This document shows, piece after piece, positions 7,255 through 48,500 of a stretch of DNA of 64,000 bases (the first letter of the stretch is position 1; every line of letters starts with the position of its first letter). The DNA comes from Amoebidium appalachense (taxonomy: Eukaryota > Protista > Ichthyosporea). A program made the position numbers and the translations under genes. The DNA lies in assembly GCA_963693365.1 (NCBI GenBank), contig CAVNZM010000019.1:283227-347226 (forward strand), written 5' to 3'. The notes under the pieces were generated by a model. It was given only the letters and a program-made list of their open reading frames with translations, was not told the origin of the DNA and did no database searches.

Positions 7255-7257
7255 GGC

Positions 7258-7311
<54 letters not shown>

Positions 7312-10208: not shown

Positions 10209-10327
10209 AGACTTGGCATCTGTACATCTGTACGCACCACACACACACCACACACACACCACACACACCACACACACACCACACACCACTCCACACACAC
10301 ACACACACACACACACCACACACCACT

Positions 10328-10360
<33 letters not shown>

Positions 10361-12500: not shown

Positions 12501-12573
12501 GGTGGCTCTCAGGGAGGGGTATACCACAGCACAGCTTTCAAACTTCACTCTCCATACGAGCGCGTTCATCACA

Positions 12574-14415: not shown

Positions 14416-14672
14416 ATAAAGACGGGGATAGAGCGTTCCGTCCATCGAATTTCCAAGATCCGAACGATTCGGATCTTGCCCATTCCTGCTTCTTCTGGTA
14501 GCCTTTCTCGCGTTCTCCTTGACTTCCTTTGTGAAGATGAAACAAAATCCAGTCTAAAAAGATGGTTCCATGTCCAGCACGGTGATACCCGTCATGAAGG
14601 AGGCAAATGAACCAGAAGAACCACGCCCACCAATCATTATTTCCTGACAACCAGTCAGGATTTCCTGATTGG

Positions 14673-15947: not shown

Positions 15948-16373
15948 GATGTGTGTCTAGAAAATGTGTGCACGCCCCTTTTATACCCTCCACACGCCCA
16001 CCCCCCGCCCCCTTCCGCACCTGCACACGCACACGCACCCCACGCCCCCCACACGCACGGGCGCCGGCCGTGCCTTCCGCCGCACCTCGCGCACACACGC
16101 CTTCGGCCGCTTGCGCCGGCTGAGCACGAAGCGCAGGCGCGCCCCCGGGTCGGACTTCACCAGCGCCATGTGGGGGGGCGGGATTTTGTGGGGTCGCCGG
16201 GATAACGTAACCTATAGGCCGAATTCGTGAATAGAGAGATGTCCTTTTTCGGTCATGTTCTCGTTCAGCCCGCGCACCAGGTACGTCCACCAATCTTTTT
16301 TTTCCTGACAACCAGTCAGGATTTCCTGATTGATCAGATCTGGATCAGACTTGGTTCGTTCCCAGGACGGAGG

Positions 16374-17072: not shown

Positions 17073-17124
17073 GTCTGAGATGAAGTAGGGGCAAGAAAAT
17101 GTTCGGAGTACAAGCACAGCTTTA

Positions 17125-17382
17125 TTATTCTGTTTGAACATTTGTCTCCCGTGTGTAATCTGTAATGATTTTCCAAAGTTGATTTTTGTGAAAACCGATG
17201 CAAGGATGTGAAAACTTTATTCGAATAATCGAAATATACTGAAATTTGTCACAGTGAAGTTGTGAAATTAAGAGAAATGTACTAATCTTATTAGCACAAT
17301 GGATGTATAGAAATACGAAACACCAAAGTTTCCGAAATATCGTTAGACAAAATAACCGTTTCCACATATCCAGAATTACCAC
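17125..17382 (-). pseudogene. Degenerate C2H2 zinc-finger remnant
   Basis: FSQKSTLENHYRLHTGDK is a C2H2 helix plus linker. The flanking fingers are frameshifted. Confidence 0.5.
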
Positions 17383-17667
17383 TAAATCCAGGGTCCCTCC
17401 CTAACAGCTCTTCCCCCCTTAGATCCACCAATCAAATCGCGTTATTCCCCCTCCTTCCTACTCCTACCTTGTCTCTTGTTTCTGGAAACAAGTGGAAACA
17501 AAACAAATAAACAAATCTCATTGGTCGAGAGAGTCACGTGACCTCAGATCCACCAATCAGCATCCGGTAATGTTGTGGCAACGTTTCTAGAATGTACCCC
17601 AGAACCGTGTCCAGAAGTGGTTGGTCAGGTTTGAAAATCATCCCCGCCGGCCCACAGGGCAGGGGGG

Positions 17668-19185
17668 TCAGTGTTTGAAAATCATCCCTCTGTTCAACTG
17701 GTAGCACCACATGCTTTCAGACGTCCCTGGTCTAGGTGGATGACCATTCCACGTTGTAATATTGGCCAATCGGACACCTTTCCTGTCCCCGAGTATCTTC
17801 TTGATGGCAATCCCGAAACTCCTGAGGCTGGGCATGTTGCGGTCCCTTGCATTGAGGCGGTGCCACTCCTGATACAGCTGGAAGAGACCACTTGATATGA
17901 CATATGCGTTGTCCTGGATGAAGGTCATGTTCTCACATCCATTCTGGTGGTCCAGAAGATCTCGTAGGAACTGTGCCTCGTCACCTCGGCTAATGCCTCT
18001 CAGTGTCTGCTTCACGTCGTTCTCAATCGGGCGTGGCATAGTTCCAGGTACGTTCTGAACTGCCATGAACTCGTGGTAGATAGCCTCCAAAACGGCAGGC
18101 TGCTTGAGATGGGATACAAGGAAATCAAAGTACTGGTGGTCCCCAATGCGGGCGGAGCTTGCCCTGAAGCAGGCATACCTGCGGCATGACTGCTCAATTC
18201 GGACAGGCCACTCTTCGTTCGACAGCATGACATACCTCTCGTAGCAGTCAATGTTTACCGCATCACACCCTTTCTTTTCCAGCATCATGGTTGACTGTGT
18301 GATGCGGGCCTTCATGATGTTGTTGAGTTCGTGAGAACCACCCCAGACCACCTCGTCGCACACAACCAGAAGTTTGTTTGCCAGGTGCTGATTAAACTTG
18401 CCTGCGATGTGTTCCTTGTGGATGATATAAGCACAGTACTCCGGGCTCAGTATATCCATGAGTGCCTGCCACCACACGTTCTTCCCCGCTCCCTGCTCAG
18501 ACTGAAAAAGCAGGGCGGTGCCGGGCTTGCTCTTGGGATGCTGGAACATGTGAGCAACCCACATCCGCAGGTATTCATACTCCTCCGCACGCCCGTTGCA
18601 CAGAATCTCCAACCCATGTCTGTTGAATGGACCGGTCAAATCAAAATTGAGGGGGTACTGTGGGTTGAACACAATGGGCAGCCCCCGGAACGGGTTGTAC
18701 ATACGGTACATCCCAGACGTGGCGGCCGCCTTTGCACCGGTGCGAGGGTCAGGGTCAGAGGGGTCGAACAGTATGCCCATGTACTTGGGAATGGCGGATG
18801 AACGAAGAACATCGGTGCCGTTGATGGGCGGAAGGGCCTTTGTTCCCTTTCCCACCTTCTCGGGTGGTTGGGGGAAGGAGTATCCAGAGAGTGAAATGGA
18901 CAGCTCCTCCTTGCTGACCAACTTGAAAGCATAGCTGAGACGTATGGGGCAAAATGCCTTCATCACATACAGTTTTGTCCCTTGAACATGCGCAACATGT
19001 GATCCAATAAACTCTTCCACCTCCGATTTCTTCCACAGCCGGAGGTCACAGGATGCAGGCATGAACGGAAGACCCCTCATCTCAGTGTTCTCAAATGCAT
19101 CAAACAGACGGAGGGTCCGTGCAACTACCTTGTCGAGCTCCTGTGTCGACACACCACCGGAAAACAATGTCATGGCCGCCTGCAT
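17668..19185 (-). CDS. SF3 helicase, D5/DUF5906-like, with no N-terminal catalytic domain
   Basis: Walker A GTALLFQSEQGAGKN, Walker B LLVVCDE, motif C YVMLSN, arginine finger RRY, and a C-terminal wHTH. First ATG at 19185. Confidence 0.85.
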   Translation of the reverse strand: MQAAMTLFSGGVSTQELDKVVARTLRLFDAFENTEMRGLPFMPASCDLRLWKKSEVEEFIGSHVAHVQGTKLYVMKAFCPIRLSYAFKLVSKEELSISLSGYSFPQPPEKVGKGTKALPPINGTDVLRSSAIPKYMGILFDPSDPDPRTGAKAAATSGMYRMYNPFRGLPIVFNPQYPLNFDLTGPFNRHGLEILCNGRAEEYEYLRMWVAHMFQHPKSKPGTALLFQSEQGAGKNVWWQALMDILSPEYCAYIIHKEHIAGKFNQHLANKLLVVCDEVVWGGSHELNNIMKARITQSTMMLEKKGCDAVNIDCYERYVMLSNEEWPVRIEQSCRRYACFRASSARIGDHQYFDFLVSHLKQPAVLEAIYHEFMAVQNVPGTMPRPIENDVKQTLRGISRGDEAQFLRDLLDHQNGCENMTFIQDNAYVISSGLFQLYQEWHRLNARDRNMPSLRSFGIAIKKILGDRKGVRLANITTWNGHPPRPGTSESMWCYQLNRGMIFKH

Positions 19186-19285
19186 CCTTCCTTGTAGCAC
19201 AGAAAATAATCGATGACCCACCCCCACCACCCACCCAAAACCTATAAAAGGCCCACCCTCCAATATTTTTGTTCACTACTCTAAG

Positions 19286-19918
19286 ATGACTGGAAGTGAT
19301 GGGTCTGAAATCGTAACACGCCTTTTATACCAACCGGAAACCACAAAGCTCGGGGAGGACTGCGTGCTGACGGGAACCGACGTGATACTGGTGGTCCACA
19401 TCACCCGATTCGTAGACGGCCTACAAACAATCCTTGCAAGACAGAGCACATACCCCAACCACCGCCCAACACTTTATTTGTACGGCCACTCCCCGTGGCG
19501 TGCATACAAGTCTGCCTTGGACGACGGGAAGTCACGGGGGGTGCGCATACTTATTGACGATAGGATAGGCGAGTGGATAACAAGGCCGTGGACAAAAGAC
19601 TCCAATCTACGACACAGCAAGGGGTATGAGCTGGTGAAGCAGTTCTTTATTGAATTTTTGAAAGACGAAAACAACAGACACAAGTTTCCCCCAGGGTCCC
19701 CCGTGAAAACATCGTCTCTCTATGCACTGTATTCCGAATGGGTGAGACGACAAGGGTCAGACATGGAGGTTCACATGAACCTATGTGTATTTGGCAAAGT
19801 TCTGAGGCAAATATTCATGATGAAACCAGTAAGTACAAAGAAACTAAGTGCAAACAAGGTGACCATCAAGGCCCACAGATTCGACTACAATCACATGACT
19901 AAGTGTCTAGGGCTCTAA
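19286..19918 (+). CDS. Inactivated PD-(D/E)XK-like domain + winged-helix domain
   Basis: LTGTDVILVVH..FVDGLQTILARQSTYPNHRPTLYLYG aligns to the nuclease at 16374-17072 but lacks D and ExK. The C-terminal SSLYALYSEW...FGKVLR is wHTH-like. tataaaa at 19243. Confidence 0.65.
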   Translation: MTGSDGSEIVTRLLYQPETTKLGEDCVLTGTDVILVVHITRFVDGLQTILARQSTYPNHRPTLYLYGHSPWRAYKSALDDGKSRGVRILIDDRIGEWITRPWTKDSNLRHSKGYELVKQFFIEFLKDENNRHKFPPGSPVKTSSLYALYSEWVRRQGSDMEVHMNLCVFGKVLRQIFMMKPVSTKKLSANKVTIKAHRFDYNHMTKCLGL

Positions 19919-20040
19919 ATTGACCAATCAGAGGAATGTTCAGCCAACTGAACATTCGTCACGTGACTCCTTGATGACCCTGACCATCAAGGCCCACAGA
20001 TTCGACTACAATCACATGACTAAGTGTCTAGGGCTCTAAA
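19860..20040. repeat. 60-bp direct duplication enclosing a 60-bp hairpin-containing insert
   Basis: tgaccatcaaggccc...gggctctaaa occurs twice. The insert has gaatgttcag-ccaa-ctgaacattc. Copy C has a single copy (37089-37149). Confidence 0.9.
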
Positions 20041-20052
20041 CACCCCCCCCCC

Positions 20053-21519
20053 CTACACCCCCTCGGGGAACGGCAGGTGCCTGTACGACTTGTCGCCCAT
20101 GTACTTCAGCTTCCGCCCGAGCGCCCACGGCATGTCGCACTGCGTGATGTGGAGCAGCCGTGTCATGAACCGGTCCCACTTCGAGTCCATCAGGAACCCG
20201 GCCGCACGGAGGAGCCAGTGGTTGTAGAGGACCAGGTCGCAGTCGCTGGAAAACACAAGCGGGCGGATGAGCCCGCTGGGGTCTGCGAGCACGACCAGGC
20301 GCACGTGCCTGAAGTTCACCATCTCGATGGTCGGGGGCATGTGGTAGACGAGCTCCCTGTCGCTGAACATGGGCGCCGTGACGGTCAGCGAGCGCAGGTT
20401 GACGGCCTGCGCGATGGCCGCCAGCGCGCGCGGGCTGTGGGGCACGTGCATGATCTCCAGCACATGGACGTCCTGCAGCGCCCAGTTGTGGGCGGGATGG
20501 AAGCACTCGAACTCGCGGGCGCCGGCCACAAGGAGCCGGTTGCCTGGGTAGTCACTGGCGCTGTCCCCGGTGGTGGTGATCTCGATGTCGCGCACCTCCT
20601 TGCCGATCTGGACGCTGGTGCACCCGCGCAGCGTGCCGCGGGCCTGTGAGCACAGCAGCTCGACACGGTGGGCGCGATTGATGGTGTCGAACACCACCAT
20701 GCCAAAGACGCACACGTGCACATTGCGCATGTTGACGCAGGACTCGATGTTGTGGATGTTGTGGATACCGGGAGCGGAGCCGCCGCTGCCGTAGCCGTAC
20801 TGGTGGCCGCACATGGAGCGGAAGCGGTAGTCCAGATGCAGTTTCACAAGGCCCGCAGGCACATGCAGCGCCGTGCTGGGGATGGCGTAGATGTTAGAGG
20901 GGTTCACACGCGTGCACAGGTGGACGTGCAGATGGGCCAGGTTTTCGAGCGCAGCGAGATCCATGACTACACCAGGTGTGGGCCTGGGAGTGGCAGAGAA
21001 GGCAAGGGTCAGACTCGTCAGGTTCTGGATAGCGCGGCCCAGCAAGGCGAAGGGGGCGACAAGGGGGGTGCGGCACTTGAAGGAGTTGACCTCTGCGACC
21101 TTGAGGTTGGGAAACAGGTCTGGGTAGATGGGCTCCGTGCTGGTGTAGCGGTGGTTATGGGCAGCCTTTGCATGGTGGTTGGCCAGGTCCCGGTACTCAT
21201 CAAGAACCATGTGGAGAACGAAGCGCATGGGCGGAAGCTCGGCAAGGCGCTTGTAGTCAGCAGTGGTGGCAAGGACGTGGGTGGCACGGACGCGCGTGGC
21301 AAACTCGATTGACTTCGGACCCTTGGACAGGTCGACGCGCATGTGGCTGTTCGGGCGCGCCAGCTCTGCCTCGTGTACGTGGCGAAGCGCTCGGCAGGTG
21401 AGCGCAATGCTGCGACGTGAGCGTGCATCCAGGAAGGAGCAGATGTACAGAAGCAGGTAGTGGTTGCCCAAGACCAGCTGTTGCGCGCTGGGAGAAAGGG
21501 TGGACTGATCGGCGCCCAT
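20053..21519 (-). CDS. F-box-like protein (488 aa) with MGxxxS N-terminus
   Basis: MGADQS...VLGNHYLLLYICSFLDARSRRSIALTCRALRHV is an F-box-like pattern. It is followed by LRR-like segments (FPNLKVAEV, IQNLTSLTL, LENLAHLHV, AVNLRSLTV). Confidence 0.75.
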   Translation of the reverse strand: MGADQSTLSPSAQQLVLGNHYLLLYICSFLDARSRRSIALTCRALRHVHEAELARPNSHMRVDLSKGPKSIEFATRVRATHVLATTADYKRLAELPPMRFVLHMVLDEYRDLANHHAKAAHNHRYTSTEPIYPDLFPNLKVAEVNSFKCRTPLVAPFALLGRAIQNLTSLTLAFSATPRPTPGVVMDLAALENLAHLHVHLCTRVNPSNIYAIPSTALHVPAGLVKLHLDYRFRSMCGHQYGYGSGGSAPGIHNIHNIESCVNMRNVHVCVFGMVVFDTINRAHRVELLCSQARGTLRGCTSVQIGKEVRDIEITTTGDSASDYPGNRLLVAGAREFECFHPAHNWALQDVHVLEIMHVPHSPRALAAIAQAVNLRSLTVTAPMFSDRELVYHMPPTIEMVNFRHVRLVVLADPSGLIRPLVFSSDCDLVLYNHWLLRAAGFLMDSKWDRFMTRLLHITQCDMPWALGRKLKYMGDKSYRHLPFPEGV

Positions 21520-22280
21520 TGTGATGAACGCGCGGAGTCGTATGGAGAGTGAAGTTTGAAAGCTGTGCTGTGGTATACCCCTCCCTGAGAGCCACCCCAC
21601 CAATAGCGCGCTGACCAATCAGACGCGCCGACCAATCAGACGCGTTGACCAATCAGACGCATTGACCAATCAGACGTTTGGAGTGCCGACCAATCAGCGT
21701 GATGTCCAATCGGATAGAGGGTCTTGTATTCCTGTGGAAGATGACCGAAGGATCTGTAGCCAAGGCATGCAGCGTCTGATTGGCTCAGTTACAGCAATTG
21801 TGTTATTTTAAAATTGACTGGTTATGATACAGTATTGATGTGATGTGAACGCCAATTTGAAAACAAAACCGAAATATTAATTTGAAAACAAAACAGAAAT
21901 ATTTAAACGCGATTTATAAGAACATTTTTGCCATTGTTTTCCTATTGAACAGGTTGTTGTTTTAGTTTCTACTCAGAGTTCGGAAAAGCGACTCGCGGTC
22001 AGGGTTATAACCGAATTGGGATCCCTGAAACAAAAACCCTATATACAATAGGATGTCTGTTTCGTTAAATCAAGTTGACGGAGTTCCTCCCATTCTTGTG
22101 GCTTTCACAACATTTACTTCTTCTATAGCTTATTCATTTCGTTTCATTTCGGTTGCAATTTTATTGCGCCGAAGGACACTTTCGCACCCTGGCAAAGCCA
22201 CTGGACCAATCAAATTGGCTATAGGACCCATATAACACCATCACTGCTTCGGATGCTGCCAGTCTTGCAAACCTGCAGCT

Positions 22281-23297
22281 ATGAACCACAAGCCAAACGT
22301 TAACCTGTGGCGCCTGCGCGACAAGCTCTTCCAAGCGACAACACCGGCCAGCGAGGCAGCGCTCATGGGCGTTCCCGTCTTCGGCGAATTCGACATGCAC
22401 TCGCCCCCAGCCAACATGCACTCGTTCCCCGCCAACACAAAACCTGCACGCGCAATACCGCCCAAAGACGACTGCGTGCATGCACAGCCTTCCCAACCCC
22501 CTTTTGCAGCTGTGCACGCACCGCCCCTGTGCAGCAAGGACGTGCGAGTGTACCCGTTGCAGACAACATGGCCACCACCACCGGGCAAGATTCCGCTACG
22601 CAGGATTCTCCCGTGCAAGACTTCGGGTGCCGCGGCCAGCGACGTGGTACAAAAGCAACGGGATGCATTTTATTGGAAGGCAGGGGCGAATCCAAAAAGA
22701 TGTGGGCGCCACTTCCGCCAAAACAAGATGGGGGCCTCCAAAAAACTCCCGTCCCTGCGCCTACCAGTGGCAGTCAACCCCGAACCCAATGCGCCCTGGC
22801 GACCACTCTCTTTTCCGGATTTGGACACGGAAGAGACCACAGAGGCAGCGGATAAGGAGAAAGCAGCAGCGCCCCCAAGCAGCCAGGTGTGCGAAGCAGC
22901 AGCGCCCCCAAGCAGCCAGGTGTGCGAAGCAGCACGCGAGCCGCTCGTGTCCGAGGACCACAGGTCCGTCGACGTCGACGACCAGGTGGCGTTCACGGAG
23001 CAGGTGGTAGCCACAAGCAGCCCCCAGTCGGAGACAGCGGGAGAGCAGTGCGAGATCTGGGTGTCTGTCGATCGATCTCCGCACCCCCCATACATCTACT
23101 ACAACGTGAAGCATGTCATAGTGCAAGTAACAAACAAGGGTTCTAAAATACACATCGCATCCGACGAGGCCACCTCCAAGCAGCTGTGGCAACTGCAATT
23201 TAAGGACAACGAGAAACCTTTGCGTGTAGTCATAGGAGGCAATGGAGAAAACACCGTTGCGGTGAATGAGGTGTGGGTGTGCATTCGACCAGGATAG
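22281..23297 (+). CDS. Hypothetical protein, 338 aa (copy B)
   Basis: Homolog of 10849-11832. Confidence 0.65.
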   Translation: MNHKPNVNLWRLRDKLFQATTPASEAALMGVPVFGEFDMHSPPANMHSFPANTKPARAIPPKDDCVHAQPSQPPFAAVHAPPLCSKDVRVYPLQTTWPPPPGKIPLRRILPCKTSGAAASDVVQKQRDAFYWKAGANPKRCGRHFRQNKMGASKKLPSLRLPVAVNPEPNAPWRPLSFPDLDTEETTEAADKEKAAAPPSSQVCEAAAPPSSQVCEAAREPLVSEDHRSVDVDDQVAFTEQVVATSSPQSETAGEQCEIWVSVDRSPHPPYIYYNVKHVIVQVTNKGSKIHIASDEATSKQLWQLQFKDNEKPLRVVIGGNGENTVAVNEVWVCIRPG

Positions 23298-23678
23298 TGG
23301 TGTGGGGTGTTTGCTGGGTGGGTGAGTGTGTATGGGAGAGAGGAATGCTATACCCATAGACAAATATAGACAGGGCAGTGTGTACAAGTACCACAATGTG
23401 ATATGCTATGATATGCCCCAACCCATACATGTGCAAATGTGCAAACCAGCGCAAATATCCCATCGTTTGTTTCTTACGATGTCTTCTCATAAGCACGATT
23501 TGGTGCAAACATCATCTATGTATCTGAACCCTAACATGTAAGCGAGACTTAACGACAGCAAGAGTGAATAAACACAAAAGTCAATACATAACCACACTTG
23601 GACGTATCTGAAACATGCATGTGCGTATGCGTGTGTGGTGTGTGTGTGGTGTGTGGTGTGTGGGGGGGTGGGTTGTGT

Positions 23679-23709
<31 letters not shown>

Positions 23710-23885
23710 GTGTGCATGTGTGTGGTGTGTGTGTGTGGTGTGTGTGGTGTGTGTGTGTGGTGTGTGTGTGTGGTGTGTGTGGTGTGTGTGTGTGGTGTGT
23801 GTGTGTGGTGTGTGTGGTGTGTGTGTGTGGTGTGTGTGTGGTGTGTGTGCCTGTGTGTGTGTACAGATGTACAGATGCCAAGTCT

Positions 23886-25064
23886 TCACGATTTATTTTG
23901 CGGGGTGCCCGGGGTGGCCGGCACCCACACATTTTGCCACCCAGAGGGGAAAAGCATCCACAACCACTCACCCTGGGGGGAGTTGGGATCTTCAACTTCT
24001 AAATTCTTGCATACAGTATCTTTAACAGGCGGTGTGAGCGGGCTTGGGGATGGGTATGGGCTTGGTGGAAGAGATGTGCATGGTGGGGGTTGGGGAGAGA
24101 AATGGGTGTTTGTGTGGGCTTGTGGGGCAGGAACAAGTCTTCGGGGGGCCAAACCCGGTCGCAGCTGTCGTCTACGGCCAACAAGCCTCCTCGCGCAGCC
24201 GTCCACACCATGCTGATGCTGCAGGACGAGTGTGTGGCAGTCGGCACACACGAGCACGGTGGCAGGGCGTGCAAAGACGTGCACGCAGTGTGGACAAGGA
24301 CAGGAATGGAAGCGGAGGGGGAGGTCGGCGGCCACGTAGGCCTGGGGTGTGCCGGGCGAAGCTGGGCGGCGGCGGCAGCTGCACAAGGGGCAGTATTCGA
24401 GGGCGGGGGTGTACATGTCAGTGACAAGGTGGCGCAGGCGACCCGCACACATGTGAGCGAGAAAGGCCTCCGCATTGCGGTAGTGTGTGCATGCACAGAC
24501 GGGGGAGGCACATTCGGGCACGGGAGCGGGGAAGCCAACGTGCCACATGGCACATGCAGGGTTGTGCGGGGCCATGCGGTGGGCGGTGGGGAGGGGGTCT
24601 GGGATGTCGGGTATGCACGTGCATGGGACGGGTATGGTGGTCAGCAGGGAGTAGACGGCATTCCAAGCCCGCCGACGCTGTGTGTTGATATAGTTGTGGG
24701 TGCGACGGGCGATGCGGAAGGCACAGTGGGTGCCGCTACGGCATGTGTCGCAGCAGCCGGGGAGGCCGGGCATGGGAGAAGAGTGAGTCGACAGCGAGGT
24801 GAAGCACGAACTACACAGACGGGGAACACTTGTTGCCGCAAGGGTCAGGCAGTGGTCGCAGCCACAAACAAAATGGGTGATGGCGGGGAAGTGTTTTGCC
24901 TTCGTCTTGAGATGTGGGGTGTTGTGGTAACCGCAGACGGCACACGCGTCGGAGGAGCCGTCACAGACGCGAAGGTCTGTGCAACGAGTGCATTCACACC
25001 CTTCAACGGGCTTTGGGGGTGAAGGGAGGGGAGGGGGGAGTGGGTGGGGGAGTGGGGGGTTCAT
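23886..25064 (-). CDS. Cys/His-rich putative metal-binding protein (intact, 392 aa)
   Basis: Open from MNPPLP to stop. Repeated CxCxxC, CxxC and CxCxH motifs with Pro-rich ends. Confidence 0.65.
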   Translation of the reverse strand: MNPPLPHPLPPPLPSPPKPVEGCECTRCTDLRVCDGSSDACAVCGYHNTPHLKTKAKHFPAITHFVCGCDHCLTLAATSVPRLCSSCFTSLSTHSSPMPGLPGCCDTCRSGTHCAFRIARRTHNYINTQRRRAWNAVYSLLTTIPVPCTCIPDIPDPLPTAHRMAPHNPACAMWHVGFPAPVPECASPVCACTHYRNAEAFLAHMCAGRLRHLVTDMYTPALEYCPLCSCRRRPASPGTPQAYVAADLPLRFHSCPCPHCVHVFARPATVLVCADCHTLVLQHQHGVDGCARRLVGRRRQLRPGLAPRRLVPAPQAHTNTHFSPQPPPCTSLPPSPYPSPSPLTPPVKDTVCKNLEVEDPNSPQGEWLWMLFPSGWQNVWVPATPGTPQNKS

Positions 25065-25545
25065 GTTTTGCAAGGGTGGGTGAAGAGAAATCGCTGTGAG
25101 CGAAAGGTGAAAAAACGAAACCGATTGAGGTGAGAGTTGATGTCCATGTGACACTGTTTGCCTGTCACACAATCTTCAATTAAAAAATGTCATTGCATCA
25201 TGGAAATCTCCCACAAGCGACAAAAACAGTGGGGTTTATTGAAACAATATTTACAGGGCAATCCGCGCCACGGAATGCGATTTAATCAGACAAGATCGAT
25301 AAACCCCCCTTCCCCTCAGCGATCAAAGGGTGATTATCAGATGTCAAACGATCTGATTGGTCAGCTTTATATCACGTGACATGATAAGATTATTACACAT
25401 TTGATAAGTAGGCATGGGCCATCGGGCCTGTCAAATACAAACAAGGTTGCAAAAGCTCACGCGCGAGACAACGCGCAATGTTTAGCGGCTATTGTTGATG
25501 ATTATGTAGGTGTATATAAAGACTGAAATCCCAACAGAAGAGGCC

Positions 25546-25790
25546 ATGGCGCAAACACAAAATCATTCAAACCGGCTGCGCTTACGATGCCGAAGCTAAA
25601 CGGAGCAAAGCCCAAACCCACCAGTACAAGCGCACTCAAGCCAGCTAAAAAAAAGTATGTATCCCAGGACAAGTGCCCTAACAACTCCAAATCGTGCAAG
25701 CTTGCACGGCGCTGCCCCGTGTGCACAGGACTCGTGCGACGCATCCATCCGTACATGTCCGCCCAACCTAAAGACTCCGATCCATCCTGA
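25546..25790 (+). CDS. Small basic Cys protein (copy B, one repeat unit, frame broken near the start)
   Basis: Homolog of 8213-8524. Confidence 0.45.
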
Positions 25791-26695
25791 AGCACGCGCA
25801 CACTTCGTGTCCGGCCGGGGTGTCCTGGCGCTCCGGCATGGCATAGAAGAAGGACTTGGGCTCCAGGGGCAACTGGCGTATGCCGGCAAAGTCCTTCTCG
25901 AGGGAGCGACCCAGCTTCCTCAGGTCGCGCAGCTGGGGGTCCTTGTGGGTGCTGCTGGCTGGGACGCCGTGTGGATGGGGTACGTCAACATCCAGAGCCT
26001 CAAGGGCGCGCGAGAGAAACGTGTAGAGGTGCAACGTGTTGATGTCGAGCGCAGACGCTATCGAAACGCCCGTGTCTATATTGATGCGCTGGGCAAGCAC
26101 CTTGAAAACCAGCGCCTCGGCGTGCGGGGCGCAGATGTTGCGGGTCTTGAAGCGTGAAGTGACTTGCACATTGGCCACCTTTTCAAGGATGGTCACCAGG
26201 CTGTGGACGTCAAGCACGGATGTCGAGCTGAGTGTGGCCACCAGGAAACCGACAAAGGTAGCGCGAATGTGGCGGGTGGCATCCAGAGGGGTGGTGGAAG
26301 GGGGCGCGCCGCGGGTCTTCTCATAGAGCCGGGTTTCGTGCAAGTGCAGCTCCTTGTTGCGGGCGCTGTTAAACCATCCCAGAAAATCGAGGGCCAGGGG
26401 GGACTCGTACAAGACCTGGGTGGTCAGGTGAAGAAACGCAGCGGGCGAGACCAGCATGAAGTTGCCCTCCTTGTAGTAGTGCGGGGAACCCTGTAGGAAT
26501 CACCAAGTATCAGCATGGATTGAGTATGGCGGGGGTGGGTCCCCCTTAATCGGTTCCGAGAACACGGGGAAGAGATAGTCAAGGACACTGAGAAAGAACA
26601 TGCCCACGCAAAACGCCACCGTAGCCACGACCACTATGGTGCCCGGATCCACCATTTAGTAGGGGTGTCGATAAAGTGTCGGTGGAAGCTTCAAA

Positions 26696-26748
<53 letters not shown>

Positions 26749-26821
26749 AAGCCTGTTTTTTGTGTGTGTGTGTGTGTGTGTGGAAGCCTTGTGTGTGTGT
26801 GTGTGTGTGTGTGGAAGCCTT

Positions 26822-26852
<31 letters not shown>

Positions 26853-27629
26853 GCCTCCTACCGCTTCTGTGCCTGGTACATCACGGGCGTTTGCGATTTT
26901 GGCCTGATCGAGACGGTCGCGTATCTCATCGATGTCCCTGAAGCCGAGAAGCGCACAGATGCTACCAGCGTCGAGGTAGGAGAGCTGCTCTTTGCTAGCT
27001 GCAAAAGGGAGCGTGCAGCTGATGAACGGTACAAGGCACAACGGGCTAAGTCTGTCGAGCGCCTCGCCCAACATCTGTGAAACAGGCAGGGGTGCAAGAT
27101 GGCGCCTCCAATCACCAGCAGTGGCGAGGGCTTTGATTTCACCAGGTGGCTTTTTGGTCATTGAGATGTTAGCGCGCGAGCGCTTCCATTGTCTCGTATC
27201 GGAATCCTGGTTCTCGGCAGACCTGAGCCGGCCAAACCATGTTGTTGCTGGCGTGGTTGTGGTGGGTGGCAGCGTGGGGGCGTGAGAGGAGACCGCTTGC
27301 AGATGCAGACGTGCGGGAACAGGACGCGCCGGAGAGGGGGGGATTGTCTCGCCGCAGACCATGTCGAAGTCGAAGACGTGGTGCTGGCCGTGGCTCTTAG
27401 CCGTCGTCGGGGTGGGCGCATGGAGCATGGAGCCGTCACCTAGTTGGTTGTCAAAAGCAGCAAAATCGTCGGACGTCAGCGGAATGAAGTCGGTACTCTG
27501 TATGATGTCCAGGTCGGGTTGTGGGGTGGGTGGAAACGTGAAGGTGTTGAATACGGCCGGCTGGGAGACAGGCGCAGCGCCAGGAGCGCCGATTTCCATC
27601 GCGGTGTGCAGTGTCTGTGACATGTACAT
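25768..27629 (-). CDS. Spliced Bro-N-like protein, copy B (exons 27629-26862, 26490-25768)
   Basis: Same splice sites and exon lengths (768 and 723 nt) as copy A. Confidence 0.7.
26500..26655 (-). CDS. Intron-nested PPxY membrane micro-protein, copy B
   Basis: Same 156-nt ORF as 7348-7503. Confidence 0.55.
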   Translation of the reverse strand: MVDPGTIVVVATVAFCVGMFFLSVLDYLFPVFSEPIKGDPPPPYSIHADTW

Positions 27630-28496
27630 TTTGTATGTGTCACCTGAGTGTCTGTGGTTGTAGAATGATGGCAGAGGCCTACGAGATGTTGACTTAAATA
27701 GCTGGCTGCGCCACCTGGTGAGCCAATTGAGAACATGTTTTTTTATTGGTTATTGAATGACCAATCGAAACAACCGGTGATACAATTGGATGCTGCATTT
27801 GTTCCTGGAGTGCACGCGATTGGCAGTAACGCTTGATTGGCTTTTTGGTGATCTCAGTATTGGGAGTGAGTGCAAAAGGACTGAAGCCATTTCGGAGCCC
27901 TTGACTGCCTAAATGTTTACAAATATACCATGAACTCTTTGGCGCAGCAATCCATTTTCTCTCTCGCGATTTTGCTTGAATTAAATCGTGTTTTACGCAT
28001 CTACGCATCTATCCCCCCACCAAATAACGGCTTCCAAGAGAACATTTGGAAATCCAGGTTAGGCCAATCAAATTCTACCGAAAACCGATTGGATGAAGTC
28101 TCAGCCCCAAGAGAACAATTTGCATATTGATGAACCCATGATGGAAAGTCTCACGCTTATGCACCCACCATGAAAAATACAATTCAAGATTTTTTGCATT
28201 TATTGTAATTACAATTGAGAGCTTATGTTGCACAGGTTATTCCCACGTACAGCGCAGAACTACATGATGCAGATGGCCCATCATCCCCAGCGCCAACCAA
28301 GTCTATTTAAGTAAGCGGATGACGTCAAAATGACGTCAACGCATATGATGACATATCTACTCTGATAACAAAGAACACCCGCCGGCAGGCGCGCTGGCGC
28401 TGCGCTCTAGCGCTGCACAGCCTGACACAATTCCGAGCACCCACACACACACACACAACTCAATTCTAATTTATAATAGCGCTATCATCGGTAAGT

Positions 28497-28532
<36 letters not shown>

Positions 28533-28769
28533 GTTTTGTGTTGTGTGTGTGTGTGTGTGTGTTGGGTGTGTGTGTGTGTGTGTGTGTGTGTGTACCGAGT
28601 TGCGTCATCACTTTTGGTTTTTGGTCAGGGTTAGCCATGACATCATTGTGTAGCGGGACTTTTTTAATTGGGTCTGGTTGCACCGAGTTGTGTCATCACT
28701 TTTGGTTTTTGGTCAGGGTTACACTAACGCAACACAGCCTGACACAACCGCGCCACCAGCGCTACACAA

Positions 28770-28838
<69 letters not shown>

Positions 28839-28937
28839 GAAAGCTACACTACTACGAAGCTACGAAAGCTACGCTACACACAACTCTAGCGCTATACACT
28901 AACACCCCCAATCAACCAGCGCTACACAACTCTCATA

Positions 28938-30722
28938 TCACTCACTATCACTGTCCGCAATCACCACAACATCAACGGGGCCCTCGGGCTTCTGCAGGCG
29001 GGCGACCTTGCGCTTCCGCCCCAGCCGCCCGCGCTGCACATACACGTCCAGCTGGGTCTGCCCCTTGAGCTGCTCGCCGCGCTCGACCAGGGGCTCGTTG
29101 AGGCTGACGGTGCGCCCGAGCTCCAGCGGCTCGATGTCGGGGAACTTGTCCTGGATGGCCTCCAGCCACGACGCCAGCTCGACGTGCACCTCGTGCTCGG
29201 CAGCGCCCGTGTCCGCGTTGTTGATGGTCGACTGGCGCAGCACCGGCGCCTTGCAGTACTCGACGTACCAGCGCGTGTAGTTGTAGACAAAGGTGTACAG
29301 CTGCTGCGTGGTCATGTCGGTCGAGTACTTGGGCTCCTCGCCGGTCCACAGCCGGATGCGCTCCTTCATGGCCTTCTGCAGCCCGGTGGTGGCGATGATG
29401 TTGGAAATCTCCCCCGACTGGAACACAAAGCACACGCCCGTGGTGGCCATGATCATGCCCGTGTACGTGCTGGCGCAGCGCACGCCTTCGCCGTACAGCG
29501 TGTCCACGCACACATACGCGAACGCGCGCGTCAGGCGCTTGAACTTATGGTTGTCCGTGTACGTGCCGCCGGTTGTGAGAGGCATGCGGGTCGGGAGGGT
29601 GAGTGGTTCGAGCTTCACGCGGGCGAGAGCGGCAGCGAGGGTGGCGAGTGCCTCGGCCTGGGCGGCCTCCGCGGCCTCCTTGGCCAACTCGGCAGCCGTC
29701 TTGTCGCCCATGGCCTGGTCGCGCTCGGCGGCAGCAGCTCGGCCGCGTTTGCTTCGGCCGCAGCAAGGGTGGCGCGCAGGGCAGAAACGGCCTCGTCCTT
29801 GCGGTTGGCAGCCAGACGGGCAAAGGCATTCTTGACTCCAAGGACCCAGACTCGGACTGTGTTGCCGATCAGGGTTTTAGAGATGCCAGAGCAGCAACAA
29901 GGAAGCCATCGGCAGTCAGCAGGTGATCCATACCAGGACGACCTCCAGTGCTCTGCATTTGTGGTCGTTTAGTTAGGTGTCGAGCAGCAAGAGAACTTTC
30001 CCGCTCGGGAGCGTGAAAGTGATGACGTCACTTCACCAATCAAAACTTTTCAGTACAAAGCTGAAAAGTGATGACGTCACCTCACCAATCAAAACTTTTC
30101 AGCTACAAAGCTGAAAAGTGATGACATCACAAGGCCAATCAAAACTCAAGCTGTCACGCGATTACCGGCAAGACACCAGTGACGTAATTTTGACGACAAG
30201 ACTTTTGAGTTATGGTAGAGACTAAAGTGATGACGCAAAAATGACCGCTCGAAATGACTTTTCAGACCCTGAGGCTGAGAAGTGATGACATCACATTATA
30301 CCACCTAAGCCAAGCAAAAAAAAAGTTTTTTGATTGGATGGCTTCCATGAATTGATGTCATCTATGGCAAACTGGTTATGTCATAGCAACGCATAAACAC
30401 AAAAATACACATTACATACCTCCATCTCAACAACACTGTAGCTTCCAGCGGGGACAAAGCCAGGAGAACCTTTCTGCCCCCTGAACATAGCTCTCACAAA
30501 CTCGTTGTAGTTGCCGTACCCCAGCAGCCGGAACACAGCGCGCCCGGAGATGGTCTCGGTGGTGTCCAGCAGGAACGGGTCGAGGAAGCGCAGCACCTTG
30601 ACCACCACGTCGTCGCCCACGGTGCCCAGCAGGCGCTCGAGCTCGGGGGAGATGGGAGGGAAGCCGGCCTCTTTGGCACCGGCAATGTTGAGGCGCTCGT
30701 AGATGGCGTAGGTGGAAGCCAT
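28938..30722 (-). CDS. Spliced AntA/MSV199-like protein, copy B (exons 30722-30420, 29952-28938; small indels at ~29740 and ~29880)
   Basis: Homolog of 3552-5345 with a GTATGT donor. The indels may be consensus errors. Confidence 0.65.
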
Positions 30723-31129
30723 GGTCGCTGGTGGAAGAGTTGGCGCTTTGGGTTTGGGGGTTGAGTGCTGTGTGTGTACCGTAAAGGTGCTGGCTGTCCA
30801 GCGCTTGCTGTGTTTATATAGGGAGGCGTCCGGCGCTTCATTGGTTGTACGCTTCATTGGTTGTAGGAGGAGAGGAATGGAATCCAGCATTCGATTGGAG
30901 AGGATTGCAAGAGAATACTGGTCCCAGATGATTGGGTCGATTTGTTCGGCGCTACGTGCACTTTTTACACATATGCTGCATGCCATTCCCCTGACCAATC
31001 GAATGCTGCATTCCACCCCCCCCCCAATGAAGCGCTGCTTTACGGTGCTCACACACCCGTCACAACCCCAATTAACTCCAAAGTGCCAACTTTTCAATTC
31101 TAATTTATAATAGCGCTATCATCGGTAAG

Positions 31130-31230
<101 letters not shown>

Positions 31231-32973: not shown

Positions 32974-33107
32974 CACACTACTCACAATGATAGCGCTAAA
33001 AATTAGAATTTAAGAGTTGGACTTGAGTTAATTGCTGAGGTGGTGGGGCACACCATGTCATTGAGATGGAGGTAAGCCTAAGGGTATTCTGTTGTGATAA
33101 ATGCATC

Positions 33108-33290
33108 GCGTGACATCATCATTTCGGCACCGTGCGGAAAATTGTTGATAGTGTAGCGATCGTGACATCATATTCGCACGTGCGGAAAAGGATAGTGAAG
33201 CGATCGGTGACATATATTCGGCACCGTGCCGAAAAGAAGTTGTAAGCGATCGTGACATCATCATTCCGGACCGGCGAAAATGGAAGTGCA
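33108..33290. repeat. Degenerate copies of the 61-bp palindromic repeat upstream of the Rep-helicase
   Basis: gtgacatcatcatttcggcaccgtgcggaaaattg... occurs ~4 times and is the reverse complement of the 120-469 unit. Confidence 0.8.
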
Positions 33291-33476
33291 AGGAGGGGAC
33301 GTCATCACTGGAAGCAACGGTGTGGGAGCACCCACACACACCCAACACATACACACACACACGCACACACACACGCACACACATGACACAGCTAGGACAA
33401 AGACTCTGTTCTTCCATACCGTCAGGGAACATATAAAAGCGACTGTCGTCAGATATAATCTATCACATTAATAGCA

Positions 33477-35516
33477 ATGACCTCCATGGAGAACTCAAAT
33501 GTCTGCTGCGAGGGTGCGGAACAACCGCGCCAGGCCCACCAGGGGTCTTCCATGCGCGGGCGGCACACCGACTGGTTTTTCAGCATCTTTTCAAAAGAGC
33601 GCGCCCACAGCATGCAAGTCGATAGCACGGAGTTTGCCCATGACGACCTGCACCGCTCTTTAGATACAGCGTTCGGGTTGCAATATGCTGAGACCACTGC
33701 TCGTTTCACTAAACGCACGAAGACCGCCCATATTCACAGCAACGCTAAGTTCAAGCCACCCGGTCCTAACCGTGCCGCTCTGAAGAACTGGGCAAAGGAC
33801 AAATTCCCTCCCGAGAACAAACTGAACATGAGTCCAATCACATGCTGGGACAAAATCGACCGTTGGTCTGTTCTTGGTAGCCAGACTACTGTCTTTGGCA
33901 CGTTCCCTGGACCACAGGCACATACTGCTACCGAAAAGGTCATGGAGGCACTCACCAAGTCTACGGAGGAGAAGAACAAAGAACTACGCGATCTCTTTGA
34001 CGCCTTCGAAGTAGAGAGTGAGGATCCGCCCATGGGCCACCGCGCAATGTGGGGCTATATTCCCGCATCATGGGGCGTGCCAGAGGTCGTCAAATTTCTC
34101 CGCCACCACGCCGCATACATACAGAACACCAATCTCTATGTCATGAGGAAGTACAACCACGAGCGCAAGATCTACGAACTGGATGTGTATGGACGTGAAA
34201 CGGCGAAGGCAAATTTGGAGAAGATCGTGCTGGAATACAAGGAAGTCGATCCTGAATCAGGCACGATCCAGAAACGTAAGTACACTGGTGTAGACTTCAT
34301 GACTGGTAGCGACATCCTCACATATGCCGTTGCCGTTTTCGATCCCTCCTCACCTCACCCAAAGGACGGAACCGTAGACCCCGACTACCTTGACCCGAGT
34401 CACCGCGTTTTCAACCTGTTCCGCGGCTTTCCCTACAAGTACAAACCCGACTTCAGCTACACTGGACCTAGCTCCCCAATTATCCCATACCTTCCTGGGC
34501 GTACTCCACCACCCATCACAGCTTCCGTTCTGGGAAAGTACGGTTTGCACAACGGTCACCCTGCAGAGTTGTTTTTTACCCACGCGTTCGAGATTCTCTG
34601 TGCCGGGGACGAAACCTGCTTTGACTACCTAATCACATGGGTAGCTCACGTGTTCCAGCATCCTGCTTCCAAACCTGGGACAGCCATCCTTGTCCGTTCA
34701 GTTCAAGGGACAGGAAAGAATATTTGGTTCAATGTACTCAAGGCGTTGGTTGGTAAAAAATACTTCGTTGATGTTAAGAACAAGGAGCACATTTCAGGGA
34801 AATTCAATGCCCACCTGTGCAACAAGCTATTTGCGGTAGTAGACGAATGTGTATTCGGAGGTGCCCATGAAGTGAACAACCTCATCAAGAGTCTCATCAC
34901 ACAAGAAGAAACTGTATTAGAAAAGAAAGGCGTGGACGCCATACAGTCCACTACCTTTGAACGATATGCTTTTCTGTCCAACGAAGATTGGCCTGTGAAG
35001 ATAGAATCATCCGATCGTCGGTTTATATGCCTCGAAGCCTCTCCTTTGCGGGTGGGACAGACGGAATACTACAGCCAGTTCATCGAACACCACGCCGATG
35101 CCCAGGTACAAGAGACGATCTACCAATTCCTGATGAACATCCCCGGTGTGCCTGTGACCATGCCCCGCCCCCCAAGCACAGAGCTGCATCGCGAACTCAT
35201 GGAGAAGAGTCTTCCGCTGGAGGTTCAGTTTCTAAAGGATTTGGCGCGGGGAGATGATGGAGTTGGGGAAACGGGAATCGTTGATGGGGCATGGGTGACC
35301 ACCGCGGGGATGGTCCAGGTCATGCGCGATTGGGCAACGGCTAACGGAATGGACGCAGCACGAGTGGTGGGATGCAAGAAACTGGGATCTACACTCAGGA
35401 AAGTGCTCGGAGAGCGCAGGTCGGTTGACAGGAAGTATGTGCATGTGGGAAACCCGGCATCGGCGGTGGTGTCGGCATATCGTTTCGACAGGACGATTGT
35501 CATTAACTACAAGTAG
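33477..35516 (+). CDS. Replication initiator-like protein: HUH (CRESS-Rep-like) N-terminal domain + D5/DUF5906-type SF3 helicase + wHTH
   Basis: 679 aa. Walker A GTAILVRSVQGTGKN, Walker B FAVVDE, motif C YAFLSN, and DRRF. The N-terminal WFFSI / TKTAHIHSNAKFK / VFGTFP recall Rep motifs I and II and the post-III EFGEF. The helicase call is firm; the HUH call is tentative. Confidence 0.8.
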   Translation: MTSMENSNVCCEGAEQPRQAHQGSSMRGRHTDWFFSIFSKERAHSMQVDSTEFAHDDLHRSLDTAFGLQYAETTARFTKRTKTAHIHSNAKFKPPGPNRAALKNWAKDKFPPENKLNMSPITCWDKIDRWSVLGSQTTVFGTFPGPQAHTATEKVMEALTKSTEEKNKELRDLFDAFEVESEDPPMGHRAMWGYIPASWGVPEVVKFLRHHAAYIQNTNLYVMRKYNHERKIYELDVYGRETAKANLEKIVLEYKEVDPESGTIQKRKYTGVDFMTGSDILTYAVAVFDPSSPHPKDGTVDPDYLDPSHRVFNLFRGFPYKYKPDFSYTGPSSPIIPYLPGRTPPPITASVLGKYGLHNGHPAELFFTHAFEILCAGDETCFDYLITWVAHVFQHPASKPGTAILVRSVQGTGKNIWFNVLKALVGKKYFVDVKNKEHISGKFNAHLCNKLFAVVDECVFGGAHEVNNLIKSLITQEETVLEKKGVDAIQSTTFERYAFLSNEDWPVKIESSDRRFICLEASPLRVGQTEYYSQFIEHHADAQVQETIYQFLMNIPGVPVTMPRPPSTELHRELMEKSLPLEVQFLKDLARGDDGVGETGIVDGAWVTTAGMVQVMRDWATANGMDAARVVGCKKLGSTLRKVLGERRSVDRKYVHVGNPASAVVSAYRFDRTIVINYK

Positions 35517-35961: not shown

Positions 35962-36498
35962 ATGGACGGTGCCCGCCCGTTTAAGTGCACATGGCCGGAA
36001 TGTAGCTGGGCCTTTAAACAGATGGCCCATTTGAACACCCACATGCACCGTCACTTGGGCGCGCCGTTCAAATGCAAATATCCAGGGTGCACCGCAGCGT
36101 ACACGACTCCCGCCTCTCTGTCTATACACCAATGGAAGCACCGCGACGAAAAACCTTTAGATGCGAGAGATGTGGCAAAGAGTTTATACACCCAAGCCCA
36201 TTCCAACTCCACCGACTCAATGTACATTCAAACACCTATGCACAGTGTGCACATGGCCCAGCTGTGGCAAAGCTTCAAATACAGATATTCTCTGGTAGTC
36301 CATCGACGAAAGCATACCGGGGAACGTCCGTACTCCTGCCGGAACAACATTGGGCAAAGTTTGCAAACTACGTGGAAAAAGCACGGCAAACAACACCAAA
36401 AACCCAACGACAAAAAACAACACCGAAGAACACACACACACCAGCACCCAGCCCCCCCACCCCACCCCCCAAACCGCCCCCCCCCCCCCGCCGAATAA
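35962..36498 (+). CDS. C2H2 zinc-finger protein (frameshifted in this consensus)
   Basis: RPFKCTWPECSWAFKQMAHLNTHMHRH, PFKCKYPGCTAAY...LSIHQWKH, FRCERCGKEF..HRLNVH (alternate frame) and HRRKHTGERPYSC. TATA ~10 nt upstream. Confidence 0.75.
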   Translation: MDGARPFKCTWPECSWAFKQMAHLNTHMHRHLGAPFKCKYPGCTAAYTTPASLSIHQWKHRDEKPLDARDVAKSLYTQAHSNSTDSMYIQTPMHSVHMAQLWQSFKYRYSLVVHRRKHTGERPYSCRNNIGQSLQTTWKKHGKQHQKPNDKKQHRRTHTHQHPAPPPHPPNRPPPPAE

Positions 36499-36524: not shown

Positions 36525-37147
36525 ATGACTGGAAGTGATGGGTCGAAATCGTAACACGCCTTACCACCGGAAACCCAAGCTCGGGAGGACTGCGTGCTGA
36601 CGGGAACCGACGTGATACTGGTGGTCCACATCACCCGATTCGTAGACGGCCTACAAACAATCCTTGCAAGACAGAGCACATACCCCAACCACCGCCCAAC
36701 ACTTTATTTGTACGGCCACTCCCCGTGGCGTGCATACAAGTCTGCCTTGGACGACGGGAAGTCACGGGGGGTGCGCATACTTATTGACGATAGGATAGGC
36801 GAGTGGATAACAAGGCCGTGGACAAAAGACTCCAATCTGCGACACAGCAAGGGATACGAGCTGGTGAAGCAGTTTTTTATTGAATTTTTGAAAGACGAAA
36901 ACAACAGACACAAGTTCCCCCAGGATCCCCCGTGAAAACATCATCTCTCTATGCACTGTATTCCGAATGGGTGAGACGACAAGGGTCAGACATGGAGGTT
37001 CACATGAACCTATGTGTATTTGGCAAAGTTCTGAGGCACATATTCATGATGAAACCAGTAAGTACAAAGAAACTAAGTGCAAACAAGGTGACCATCAAGG
37101 CCCACAGATTCGACTACAATCACATGACTAAGTGTCTAGGGCTCTAA
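36525..37147 (+). pseudogene. Inactivated nuclease-wHTH gene, copy C (frameshifted)
   Basis: Near-identical to 19286-19918 with several small deletions, which may be sequencing errors. Confidence 0.6.
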
Positions 37148-37159
37148 ACACCCCCCCCC

Positions 37160-48114: not shown

Positions 48115-48500
48115 GGTCACTGGTTGTGTGTTGTGTGTGTACCGTAAAGGTGCTGGCTGTCCAGCGCTTGCTGTGTTTATATAGGGGGCATCCGGCGTTT
48201 CATTGGTTGTTCGCTTCATTGGTTGTAGGAGGAGAGGAATGGAATCCAGCATTCGATTGGAGAGAAGTGCAAAGAATACTGGTCCCAGATGATTGGGTCG
48301 ATTTGTTCGGCGCTACGTGCACTTTTTACACATATGCTGCATGCCATTCCCCTAACCAATCGAATGCTGCATTCCACCCCCTCCTTCTACACCCAATGAA
48401 GCGCCGTTTTACGGTGCTCACACACCCGTCACAACCCCTGTAACTCCAAAGTGCCAACTTTTCAATTCTAAATTATAATAGCGCTATCATCAGTAGTGTG

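Follow-up and report, generated by a model that had tools for sequence, protein, structure and literature searches.

In a 64,000-nucleotide stretch of the Amoebidium appalachense genome (Ichthyosporea; assembly GCA_963693365.1, contig CAVNZM010000019.1, positions 283,227 to 347,226; hereafter the window), we identified a gene that fuses a predicted HUH-fold domain of the Rep type, which has lost its catalytic Tyr, to a D5-type superfamily 3 (SF3) helicase. The HUH-D5 fusion is real and apparently undescribed; its fold and the family-wide loss of the Tyr are well supported, and from these we infer its function. The protein probably serves a large eukaryotic mobile element as its replication initiator and helicase, combining a non-cutting HUH-fold origin reader with a D5/NrS-1 SF3 helicase. 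It is likely an initiator of the E1/large T kind that arose by convergence and was built from different parts.

The 679-amino-acid (aa) open reading frame (ORF) proposed in an initial annotation of the window proved to be as described (Table 1), and the stretches quoted there were all located, including the trailing FG at aa 140-141. The helicase gene is intronless. Contigs from four public runs were compared with window positions 33380-34400; those from three of the four covered the gene from 33409 without indels, and a single contig in each of runs X1 and X9 spanned 33693-34000 with no other letters and no gaps. Codon 33864-33866 encodes Trp, and the identity of the X1 and X9 contigs over this interval indicates that the Trp at the motif III position is real and not an assembly error. 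In run X1 the 5' part of the gene was present in three or more diverged versions. Upstream of the HUH domain, a CC[ED]G...P.QA motif (aa 10-22, window 33504-33542) was present in all five sequences that reach that far and is modelled as disordered.

The structure of aa 8-284 was modelled with AlphaFold2 (AF2), using a nine-row alignment that drew on six family members. The predicted local distance difference test (pLDDT) values were about 72-90 in a block over aa 28-127. The modelled core, strand-helix-strand-strand-helix-strand with a short helix and a final strand after it, forms an RRM-like five-stranded sheet with flanking helices. When the model was compared with 48,161 chains by VIA, ranks 1-9 were all Reps or E1/large T origin-binding domains (Z 8.6-10.4). 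The first was the bovine papillomavirus E1 DNA-binding domain (DBD; 1ksy, Z 10.4, root-mean-square deviation (rmsd) 3.8, 124 residues aligned), accompanied by geminivirus Rep (1l2m, Z 9.7, rmsd 3.5, 109 aligned), Vientovirus Rep (Z 9.6, rmsd 2.9, 106 aligned) and SV40 large T (4gdf, Z 9.4, rmsd 4.0, 117 aligned), with smacovirus Rep, a second Vientovirus entry, human papillomavirus 18 E1, nanovirus Rep and circovirus Rep at ranks 5-9. A second VIA pass left the order unchanged, and ranks 1-11 of 999 were again all Reps or E1/large T origin-binding domains (1f08, Z 10.6). The Rep matches of the predicted model (Z 8.6-10.6, rmsd 2.9-4.0, 90-126 residues aligned) place it within this fold.

Foldseek gave CRESS Reps at ranks 1-7 in the PDB (best E 1.7e-3) and 86 matches at E≤1e-3 in BFVD, where all 19 named rows among the 50 listed were Rep proteins. 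In the ESM atlas, aa 22-150 matched CRESS Rep clusters best (0.93, 198 of 256 features) and the E1 DBD at rank 30 (0.88), and the ten best family-assigned matches all belonged to one family or clan. No AEP chain appeared among the 50 matches listed per structural search (Foldseek PDB, VIA and second VIA), a count that an unlisted family could escape. These rankings bear out, at the level of predicted structure, the HUH fold that the initial annotation had read into the N-terminal ~140 aa; neither an AEP/primase nor an unrelated fold displaced the HUH domains from the first ranks, and the model leaves little doubt that the N-terminus has an HUH fold. The sequence profiles for Viral_Rep and Gemini_AL1, named in the same annotation as a check, and those for CRESS Reps did not recover it (see below). 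Since the two sets of structural matches are tied, the model does not decide whether E1/large T or the CRESS Reps are the closer kin.

It is very improbable that the domain has a generic ferredoxin/RRM-like (ACT-like) fold and resembles the Rep motifs by chance. ACT domains reached Z 8.2-8.9 over the two VIA passes, a model from the single sequence had a pLDDT of only 35, and there is no sequence-level link to Reps. However, the language-model search and two structural aligners put HUH domains first, the HUH matches (over the 90-126 residues given above) include the C-terminal helix and strand whereas the ACT matches end near model residue 116-125, and the HxH/HxE motif sits on the expected central strand. 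A Pfam match to adenosine deaminase (aa 79-137; E 0.056 for the whole protein and 0.003 for the domain, under the cut-off) does not fit the model and was rejected.

Homologs were gathered in three protein searches and one look-up of clusters, and by scanning 1.84 billion representatives with a profile and no filter. Six distinct N-terminal domains were compared (the window's, P0001, P0002, P0003, P0046 and P0047; P0045 was left out), the others being 36-69% identical to the window's over aa 30-141. The control set comprised 42 CRESS Reps, two of 44 loci having been dropped as too short. Run against PDB sequences, neither the N-terminal profile nor P0047 returned anything at E≤10, and no N-terminal relatives were found in viral_contigs or genome_contigs. 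P0003, which begins after motif I, and P0048, a fragment, are annotated at source as belonging to a Daphnia sinensis assembly (animal or contaminant).

Motif II is of the HUH/HUQ type, reading HIH in three of the six domains (the window's included) and HLE in the other three. At the motif III position all six have Trp130, and no homolog found has a Tyr at aa 121-135; YxxK occurs in 0/6 family domains, compared with 40/42 control Reps. The only common Tyr is strand residue 70 (Phe in P0047). Because the Tyr is missing from every domain and an invariant Trp stands there, its loss is a family trait and not a dead allele, the alternative raised in the initial annotation for the case that close homologs keep YxxK. 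The invariant positions include E72, K79, R80, K82, H85, N89, PGP 95-97, K103, W105, W124 and W130. The motif III position lies 11 residues from the trailing Gly; this Gly could be located in 19 CRESS Reps, and in 13 of them the distance is 11-12. The spacings from motif I to II (50 vs 32-39) and from motif II to III (45 vs 36-44) are longer than in the controls. The claim that the motifs are in register is true in a loose sense only. Over aa 30-141, the public-run copies differ by 14 synonymous and 2 non-synonymous changes, and over all 36 rows of differences by 29 and 7, in a count that scores every letter separately and carries the bias of an 80% likeness filter. This pattern fits purifying selection, with the domain being maintained.

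The retention of His85 and of His or Glu at position 87 in all six domains would allow a residual role in metal or single-strand binding. MOBV relaxases use a histidine nucleophile. It is nevertheless unlikely that the domain is a metal-dependent enzyme or clamp for single-stranded DNA or hairpins that acts through His85 and His/Glu87, with water, another nucleophile or a Tyr in trans, in transposition or rolling-hairpin replication. In favour of such an enzyme, Glu72, His85 and Asn89 are invariant, and by strand alternation in the model they and residue 87 would share one sheet face; E1 and large T lack all three motifs (PMC6668415). In addition, the absence of a transposase from 127 scanned ORFs leaves the mobility of the element unexplained. 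Against it, aa 25-150 contain no conserved Tyr other than residue 70, none of the six domains has an acidic residue at aa 74 or 76 to match the one found before motif II in the control Reps, and His87 varies to Glu. Nor is the domain needed for the CACTACT ends of the element, since a 28-kb sister element has them with an HUH-less helicase.

The helicase half of the protein matched DUF5906 in Pfam (aa 407-515, E 2e-19), and its Walker A, Walker B, motif C and Arg-finger DRR are all intact and conserved across the family. The NrS-1 helicase entries 6k9c and 6k9e were the sole PDB matches of the family profile at E≤1 (positions 375-655, E 1.8e-17), and PHROG primase-helicase families matched aa 363-648. 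The D5-type assignment made in the initial annotation is therefore sound: residues 375-655 are an SF3 helicase of the DUF5906/NrS-1 type (D5 clade). Neither the E1 nor the large T helicase family was among the Pfam matches of the protein, which gave DUF5906 instead. No N-terminal primase family (AEP, prim-pol or DnaG) was matched, and the N-terminal domain of about 120 aa is closest to HUH domains. In the model, aa 199-330 form a helix and a small sheet, a fold without a match on its own. The Pfam scan found no Pox_D5 match in the protein's own C-terminus, which aligns via the C-terminal parts of NrS-1 and PHROG 1156; the corresponding region of a paralogous helicase in the window resembles a stand-alone Pox_D5-like ORF.

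A tree of 62 helicase domains was built with a midpoint root, after removal of the near-duplicates P0045, P0004 and P0044 and of the ATPase-less P0047. The HUH-bearing proteins (five full and the fragment P0048) formed one clade (100/98). Its sister was the HUH-less paralog of the window at 17668-19185 (99/92), which is 35% identical to the fusion protein over aa 162-678 of the latter. The paralog has an in-frame stop 29 codons upstream and a divergent gene beyond, leaving no room for an N-terminal domain. The next branch was P0005 (100/94), which as annotated also lacks an N-terminal domain. The best-scoring full-length protein beyond these groups, P0049, resembles AEP_C962R at its N-terminus (atlas 0.97), and prim-pol, PriCT or Toprim domains are found at the N-terminus of many phage-type relatives. 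CHC2 zinc-fingers also occur among the N-terminal Pfam domains of other helicase relatives, most of the domain-bearing ones having prim-pol, PriCT, Toprim or CHC2. The 160 loci recovered with the helicase profile were helicase-only matches with no N-terminal match, and no active, Tyr-bearing intermediate was among the family members found. With HUH-less sisters and an AEP in a further relative, the sequence tree suggests that the primase was lost first and the HUH domain then gained once. A primase-helicase would thus have lost its primase, and one lineage, separate from that of the papilloma- and polyomaviruses, would have acquired an HUH domain on its own.

In the mechanism that we favour, the HUH-fold domain would bind origin DNA without cutting it, via the invariant basic hairpin (K79, R80, K82), the loop that follows and a helix; on the model, origin binding by this domain is likely. 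No Tyr-linked nicking is expected, because the motif III Tyr is the nucleophile in the HUH superfamily and is lost. The bound domain would load the attached helicase, whose collar and ATPase would form a hexamer and unwind the DNA, by analogy with D5, NrS-1, E1 and large T. Priming and synthesis would be left to the host primase and polymerase, as for E1/large T, since the element shows neither enzyme. In Papovaviricetes, an inactivated HUH domain serves as the origin-recognition domain (PMC13595969), and host enzymes complete replication in the E1/large T systems (PMC13595969; PMC6668415).

The HUH-fold domain could instead be a protein-interaction or non-specific DNA-holding module, for oligomerisation or for recruiting host primase or RPA, with winged helices reading the origin; we consider this quite unlikely. 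Intact HUH-less relatives exist, and winged-helix-like ORFs lie beside both helicase genes of the window. In pRN1 ORF904 a C-terminal winged helix has likewise been proposed to read the origin, and the winged-helix C-terminus of P4 alpha has been called an origin-binding domain (PMC2777425). However, the most conserved surface residues of the domain are basic (K79, R80, K82 and K103) and lie on the hairpin turn and a helix, and its nearest structures are DNA-binding domains.

The initial annotation had proposed a 61-bp repeat for nicking and binding assays, but public contigs lend its link to the gene no support. The junction at 33408/33409 is not borne out by them, and the clean array, with a palindrome-like core CCGGCACCGTGCCGG in each unit, lies at the start of the window and not beside the gene. 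In runs X1, X4 and X9 the gene-start contig begins at 33409 with a different 5' flank, and this contig accounts entirely for the depth in the upstream bins; missing cover alone could be explained by errors and skipped repeats. Because the public contigs carry a different flank, the repeat-gene junction is either a minority arrangement or an assembly artefact, and the 61-bp unit is a candidate target and no more. A reading of window positions 1-116 as sequence upstream of another copy of the gene was rejected, since the likeness ends at the base where the public contigs diverge. Two 92-bp tandem arrays (467-904 and 57705-58243), in inverted orientation and with a GATGACGTCA core per unit, lie near element ends.

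Several observations weigh against reading the protein as a non-cutting, HUH-based initiator. On the side of the fold, no Foldseek match in the PDB reached E≤0.001, an ACT domain scored Z 8.5 over 84 residues, within 1 of VIA ranks 4-9, and the model was built from nine rows with a predicted template modelling score (pTM) of 0.45. No Rep family in Pfam, Viral_Rep included, matched the N-terminus at E≤1, and the hhalign comparison of the family with the 42 CRESS Rep segments was not significant (probability 0.8%). The family profile matched only 3 proteins among the 1.84 billion representatives. As this profile comparison could not fix the register of the Tyr and the pLDDT of the motif III segment is about 58-72, the correspondence of Trp and Tyr is drawn from spacing, to within one or two residues. 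As to function, motif II is partly kept, unlike in large T and E1; no public contig links the candidate origin repeats to the gene; and the winged helix proposed to read the origin in pRN1 ORF904 (cited above) offers another reader. The HUH domain is dispensable for the wider family, because the paralog and P0005 lack it, and the tree is only midpoint-rooted.

The window has a eukaryotic appearance, with CA microsatellites, C2H2 and F-box-like genes and TATA-like boxes. A motif CACTACT...ATGATAGCGCTA adjoins CA runs at 1119(-), 3145(+), 31134(-), 32976(+) and 56976(+), these five exact pattern matches comparing with none in 100 shuffles, and variants occur at 28490(-) and 48498(-). No exact match to the motif was found in viral_contigs. 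These ends bound the related 28-kb element and, tentatively, a 15.5-kb multi-copy element that contains the target gene together with a zinc-finger and a winged-helix-like gene and a single arm (Table 1). The core of the related 28-kb element contains the HUH-less helicase and several unannotated ORFs. The variant at 28477-28490 lies within the right arm of the latter and is absent at the left-arm counterpart (about 5500), which points to nesting, or else to a rearrangement, at a CA run in the interior.

A scan of 127 of the 259 stop-to-stop ORFs of at least 100 aa (those in repeat arms or of low complexity were left out) yielded neither a transposase or integrase nor a capsid or polymerase, and none of these was found in 15 window ORFs searched against PHROG. 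The same 127 ORFs contained no DDE/CACTA transposase, although spliced, remote or elsewhere-in-genome copies would escape. Double jelly-roll capsid, packaging ATPase, integrase and pPolB likewise had no Pfam or PHROG match, with several element ORFs, among them 4329-5345, 7546-8235, 10849-11832 and 14673-15947, being without annotation.

The winged-helix-like ORFs next to the two helicase genes belong to a family with members at 16374-17141 (-), 19286-19918 (+), 36555-37150 (+) and 47220-47876 (+) (blastp E 1e-6 to 1e-20). The 19286-19918 copy has a Pox_D5 match (E 0.003) under the curated cut-off, and the end region of 16374-17141 is 46% identical to the C-terminus of the paralogous helicase. 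We take the shared N-terminal part of the four ORFs to resemble a PD-(D/E)XK nuclease by eye, though no search hit it; the family may comprise winged-helix regulators or the missing nuclease.

The stretches 31240-33408 and 36081-36399 are error-rich, many letters of the public contigs being missing from the window, which is the likely reason why the zinc-finger gene is split. An F-box-like gene is present three times (12574-14415 (+), 20053-21519 (-) and 37160-38626 (-); Pfam E 0.003-0.004, under the cut-off), and its 12574-14415 copy is cut at the arm boundary and continues into unrelated sequence. AT-rich fold-back repeats at 1375-2986 and 52878-53744 are related to each other and flanked by CA runs. 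Beyond the defined elements, a 348-aa ORF at 50422-51468 (-) has a weak BAG-domain match (E 0.023).

Table 1. Features of the HUH-D5 fusion gene and its surroundings in the window.
Feature	Position	Strand	Remarks
679-aa ORF	33477..35516	+	HUH-fold domain, linker, collar-like middle region, DUF5906 SF3 ATPase, C-terminal winged-helix-like region
TATA-like box	33432..33439	+	45 bases 5' of the start codon
Predicted HUH Rep-fold domain, aa 30-141	33564..33899	+	AF2 model, structural matches
Motif I-like strand WFFSI, aa 33-37	33573..33587	+	Asp32-Trp33 in 5/5 sequences reaching it; first strand of the model
Basic hairpin turn KRTK, aa 79-82	33711..33722	+	Lys79, Arg80 and Lys82 in 6/6; between two model strands; candidate DNA-reading loop
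Motif II HIH, aa 85-87	33729..33737	+	His85 in 6/6; position 87 His in 3/6, Glu in 3/6
Motif III position WSVL, aa 130-133	33864..33875	+	No Tyr, no Lys; Trp130 in 6/6; Tyr at aa 121-135 in 0/6
Middle region, aa 199-330, likely collar/D5_N-like oligomerisation part	34071..34466	+	Aligns with the HUH-less paralog and P0005
DUF5906 SF3 ATPase	34695..35021	+	Walker A GTGKN 411-415, Walker B VVDE 454-457, motif C SN 501-502, DRR 513-515
Putative C-terminal winged-helix-like region, aa 580-675 (by homology)	35214..35501	+	Within the NrS-1 and PHROG 1156 alignments
Paralogous DUF5906 helicase, 505 aa, no HUH domain	17668..19185	-	Core of the neighbouring 28-kb element
Putative left end of the target's element	32976..32998	+	CACTACT...ATGATAGCGCTA beside a CA run
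Putative right end of the target's element	48479..48498	-	Inverted motif beside a CA run
Related 28-kb element	3145..31134	.	CACTACT ends in CA runs; inverted arms of about 10.5 kb, 94-98% identical
Clean 61-bp tandem array	120..469	-	5.7 copies; palindrome-like core CCGGCACCGTGCCGG per unit
Gap-riddled 61-bp repeat copies	33109..33288	+	78% identity, 70 gaps in 375 columns; linked to the gene solely in this assembly
C2H2 zinc-finger gene, downstream	35962..36400	+	Split over frames; public contigs show 15 gaps relative to the window
Stand-alone winged-helix-like gene	36555..37150	+	Copy of 19286-19918, 97% DNA identity

The conversion of an HUH nuclease into a non-cutting origin binder is treated as the founding step of papilloma- and polyomavirus replication, and the forces that drove it are called obscure (PMC6668415). 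If our reading is true, finding the design again on another helicase clade would establish it as convergent, and the HUH-less sisters in the same genome, together with the partial motif II, would open the intermediate stage to testing. A wider proposal, which we advance tentatively and with some doubt, is that the window holds giant eukaryotic elements (15-28 kb) of a class not described before, which sit in CA microsatellites via CACTACT ends and replicate with a D5-type helicase that lost its primase and then captured a CRESS-like Rep domain, turning it into a non-cutting origin reader. Such elements would represent a second, independent E1/large T design, caught at an intermediate stage with the metal motif partly kept. 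The data point to a family of large eukaryotic elements whose mobility is unexplained. No description of the HUH-D5 fusion or its element was found in the literature searched, which took in few subscription papers.

CACTA/EnSpm transposons have inverted ends starting with CACTA. The target's element shares such ends and sub-terminal repeat arrays with them, but carries an intronless D5-type helicase and no CACTA transposase domain in the 127 ORFs. Replitrons and Helitrons are likewise multi-copy eukaryotic elements with a CRESS-like HUH domain. In Replitrons GYxxK is retained, a helicase is lacking and the terminal repeats are short and direct, and Helitrons have two Tyr and an SF1 helicase (10.1101/2022.12.15.520654), whereas the protein described here has no Tyr and a fused helicase, in an element with inverted CACTACT ends. 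Mriyaviruses have D5-like SF3 helicases with the AEP inactivated or replaced, and an HUH protein in the same genomes. That HUH protein is separate, predicted to be active and closest to SIRV1 ORF119, and the replacement domain at the N-terminus of SF3_hel2 had no structural match (PMC11253617); no mriyavirus capsid or packaging gene was detected among the window ORFs by Pfam or PHROG. D5-like or DUF5906 helicases and HUH genes are also known from Polinton-like elements, not as the fusion described here (PMC11296320, PMC13215967, 10.64898/2026.06.19.733378).

Among primase-helicases, the NrS-1 prim-pol helicase, poxvirus D5, phage P4 alpha, pRN1 ORF904 and African swine fever virus C962R-like proteins share the DUF5906 ATPase and its collar-like and winged-helix-like flanks; in the target, the HUH-fold domain replaces the primase. 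CRESS-DNA virus Reps (gemini-, circo-, nano-, smaco- and redondovirus) share the fold, the motif I-like strand, the HUH-like motif II, the trailing FG strand and the fusion to an SF3 helicase. The target differs from them in its lack of YxxK, its longer motif I-II spacing, its helicase clade and its length of 679 aa, and has no sequence-level similarity to them; it is not an active Rep, since motif III is absent. The Papovaviricetes proteins E1 and large T, which include the best structural matches of the domain (1ksy Z 10.4, 1f08 Z 10.6, 4gdf Z 9.4), are alike in carrying an inactive HUH-fold domain N-terminal to an SF3 helicase and in having no primase of their own. The target gene, in contrast, lies in a 15-kb chromosomal element with no capsid gene detected, and its product keeps motif II in part where those two have none of the three motifs (PMC6668415). 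Its helicase belongs to the DUF5906/NrS-1 type and probably has a winged helix at the C-terminus; the D5/NrS-1 clade diverged early from the E1, Rep68 and large T helicases (PMC9611036). The protein is therefore not a member of the E1/large T family, and because of this early split its likeness to E1 and large T is best read as convergence.

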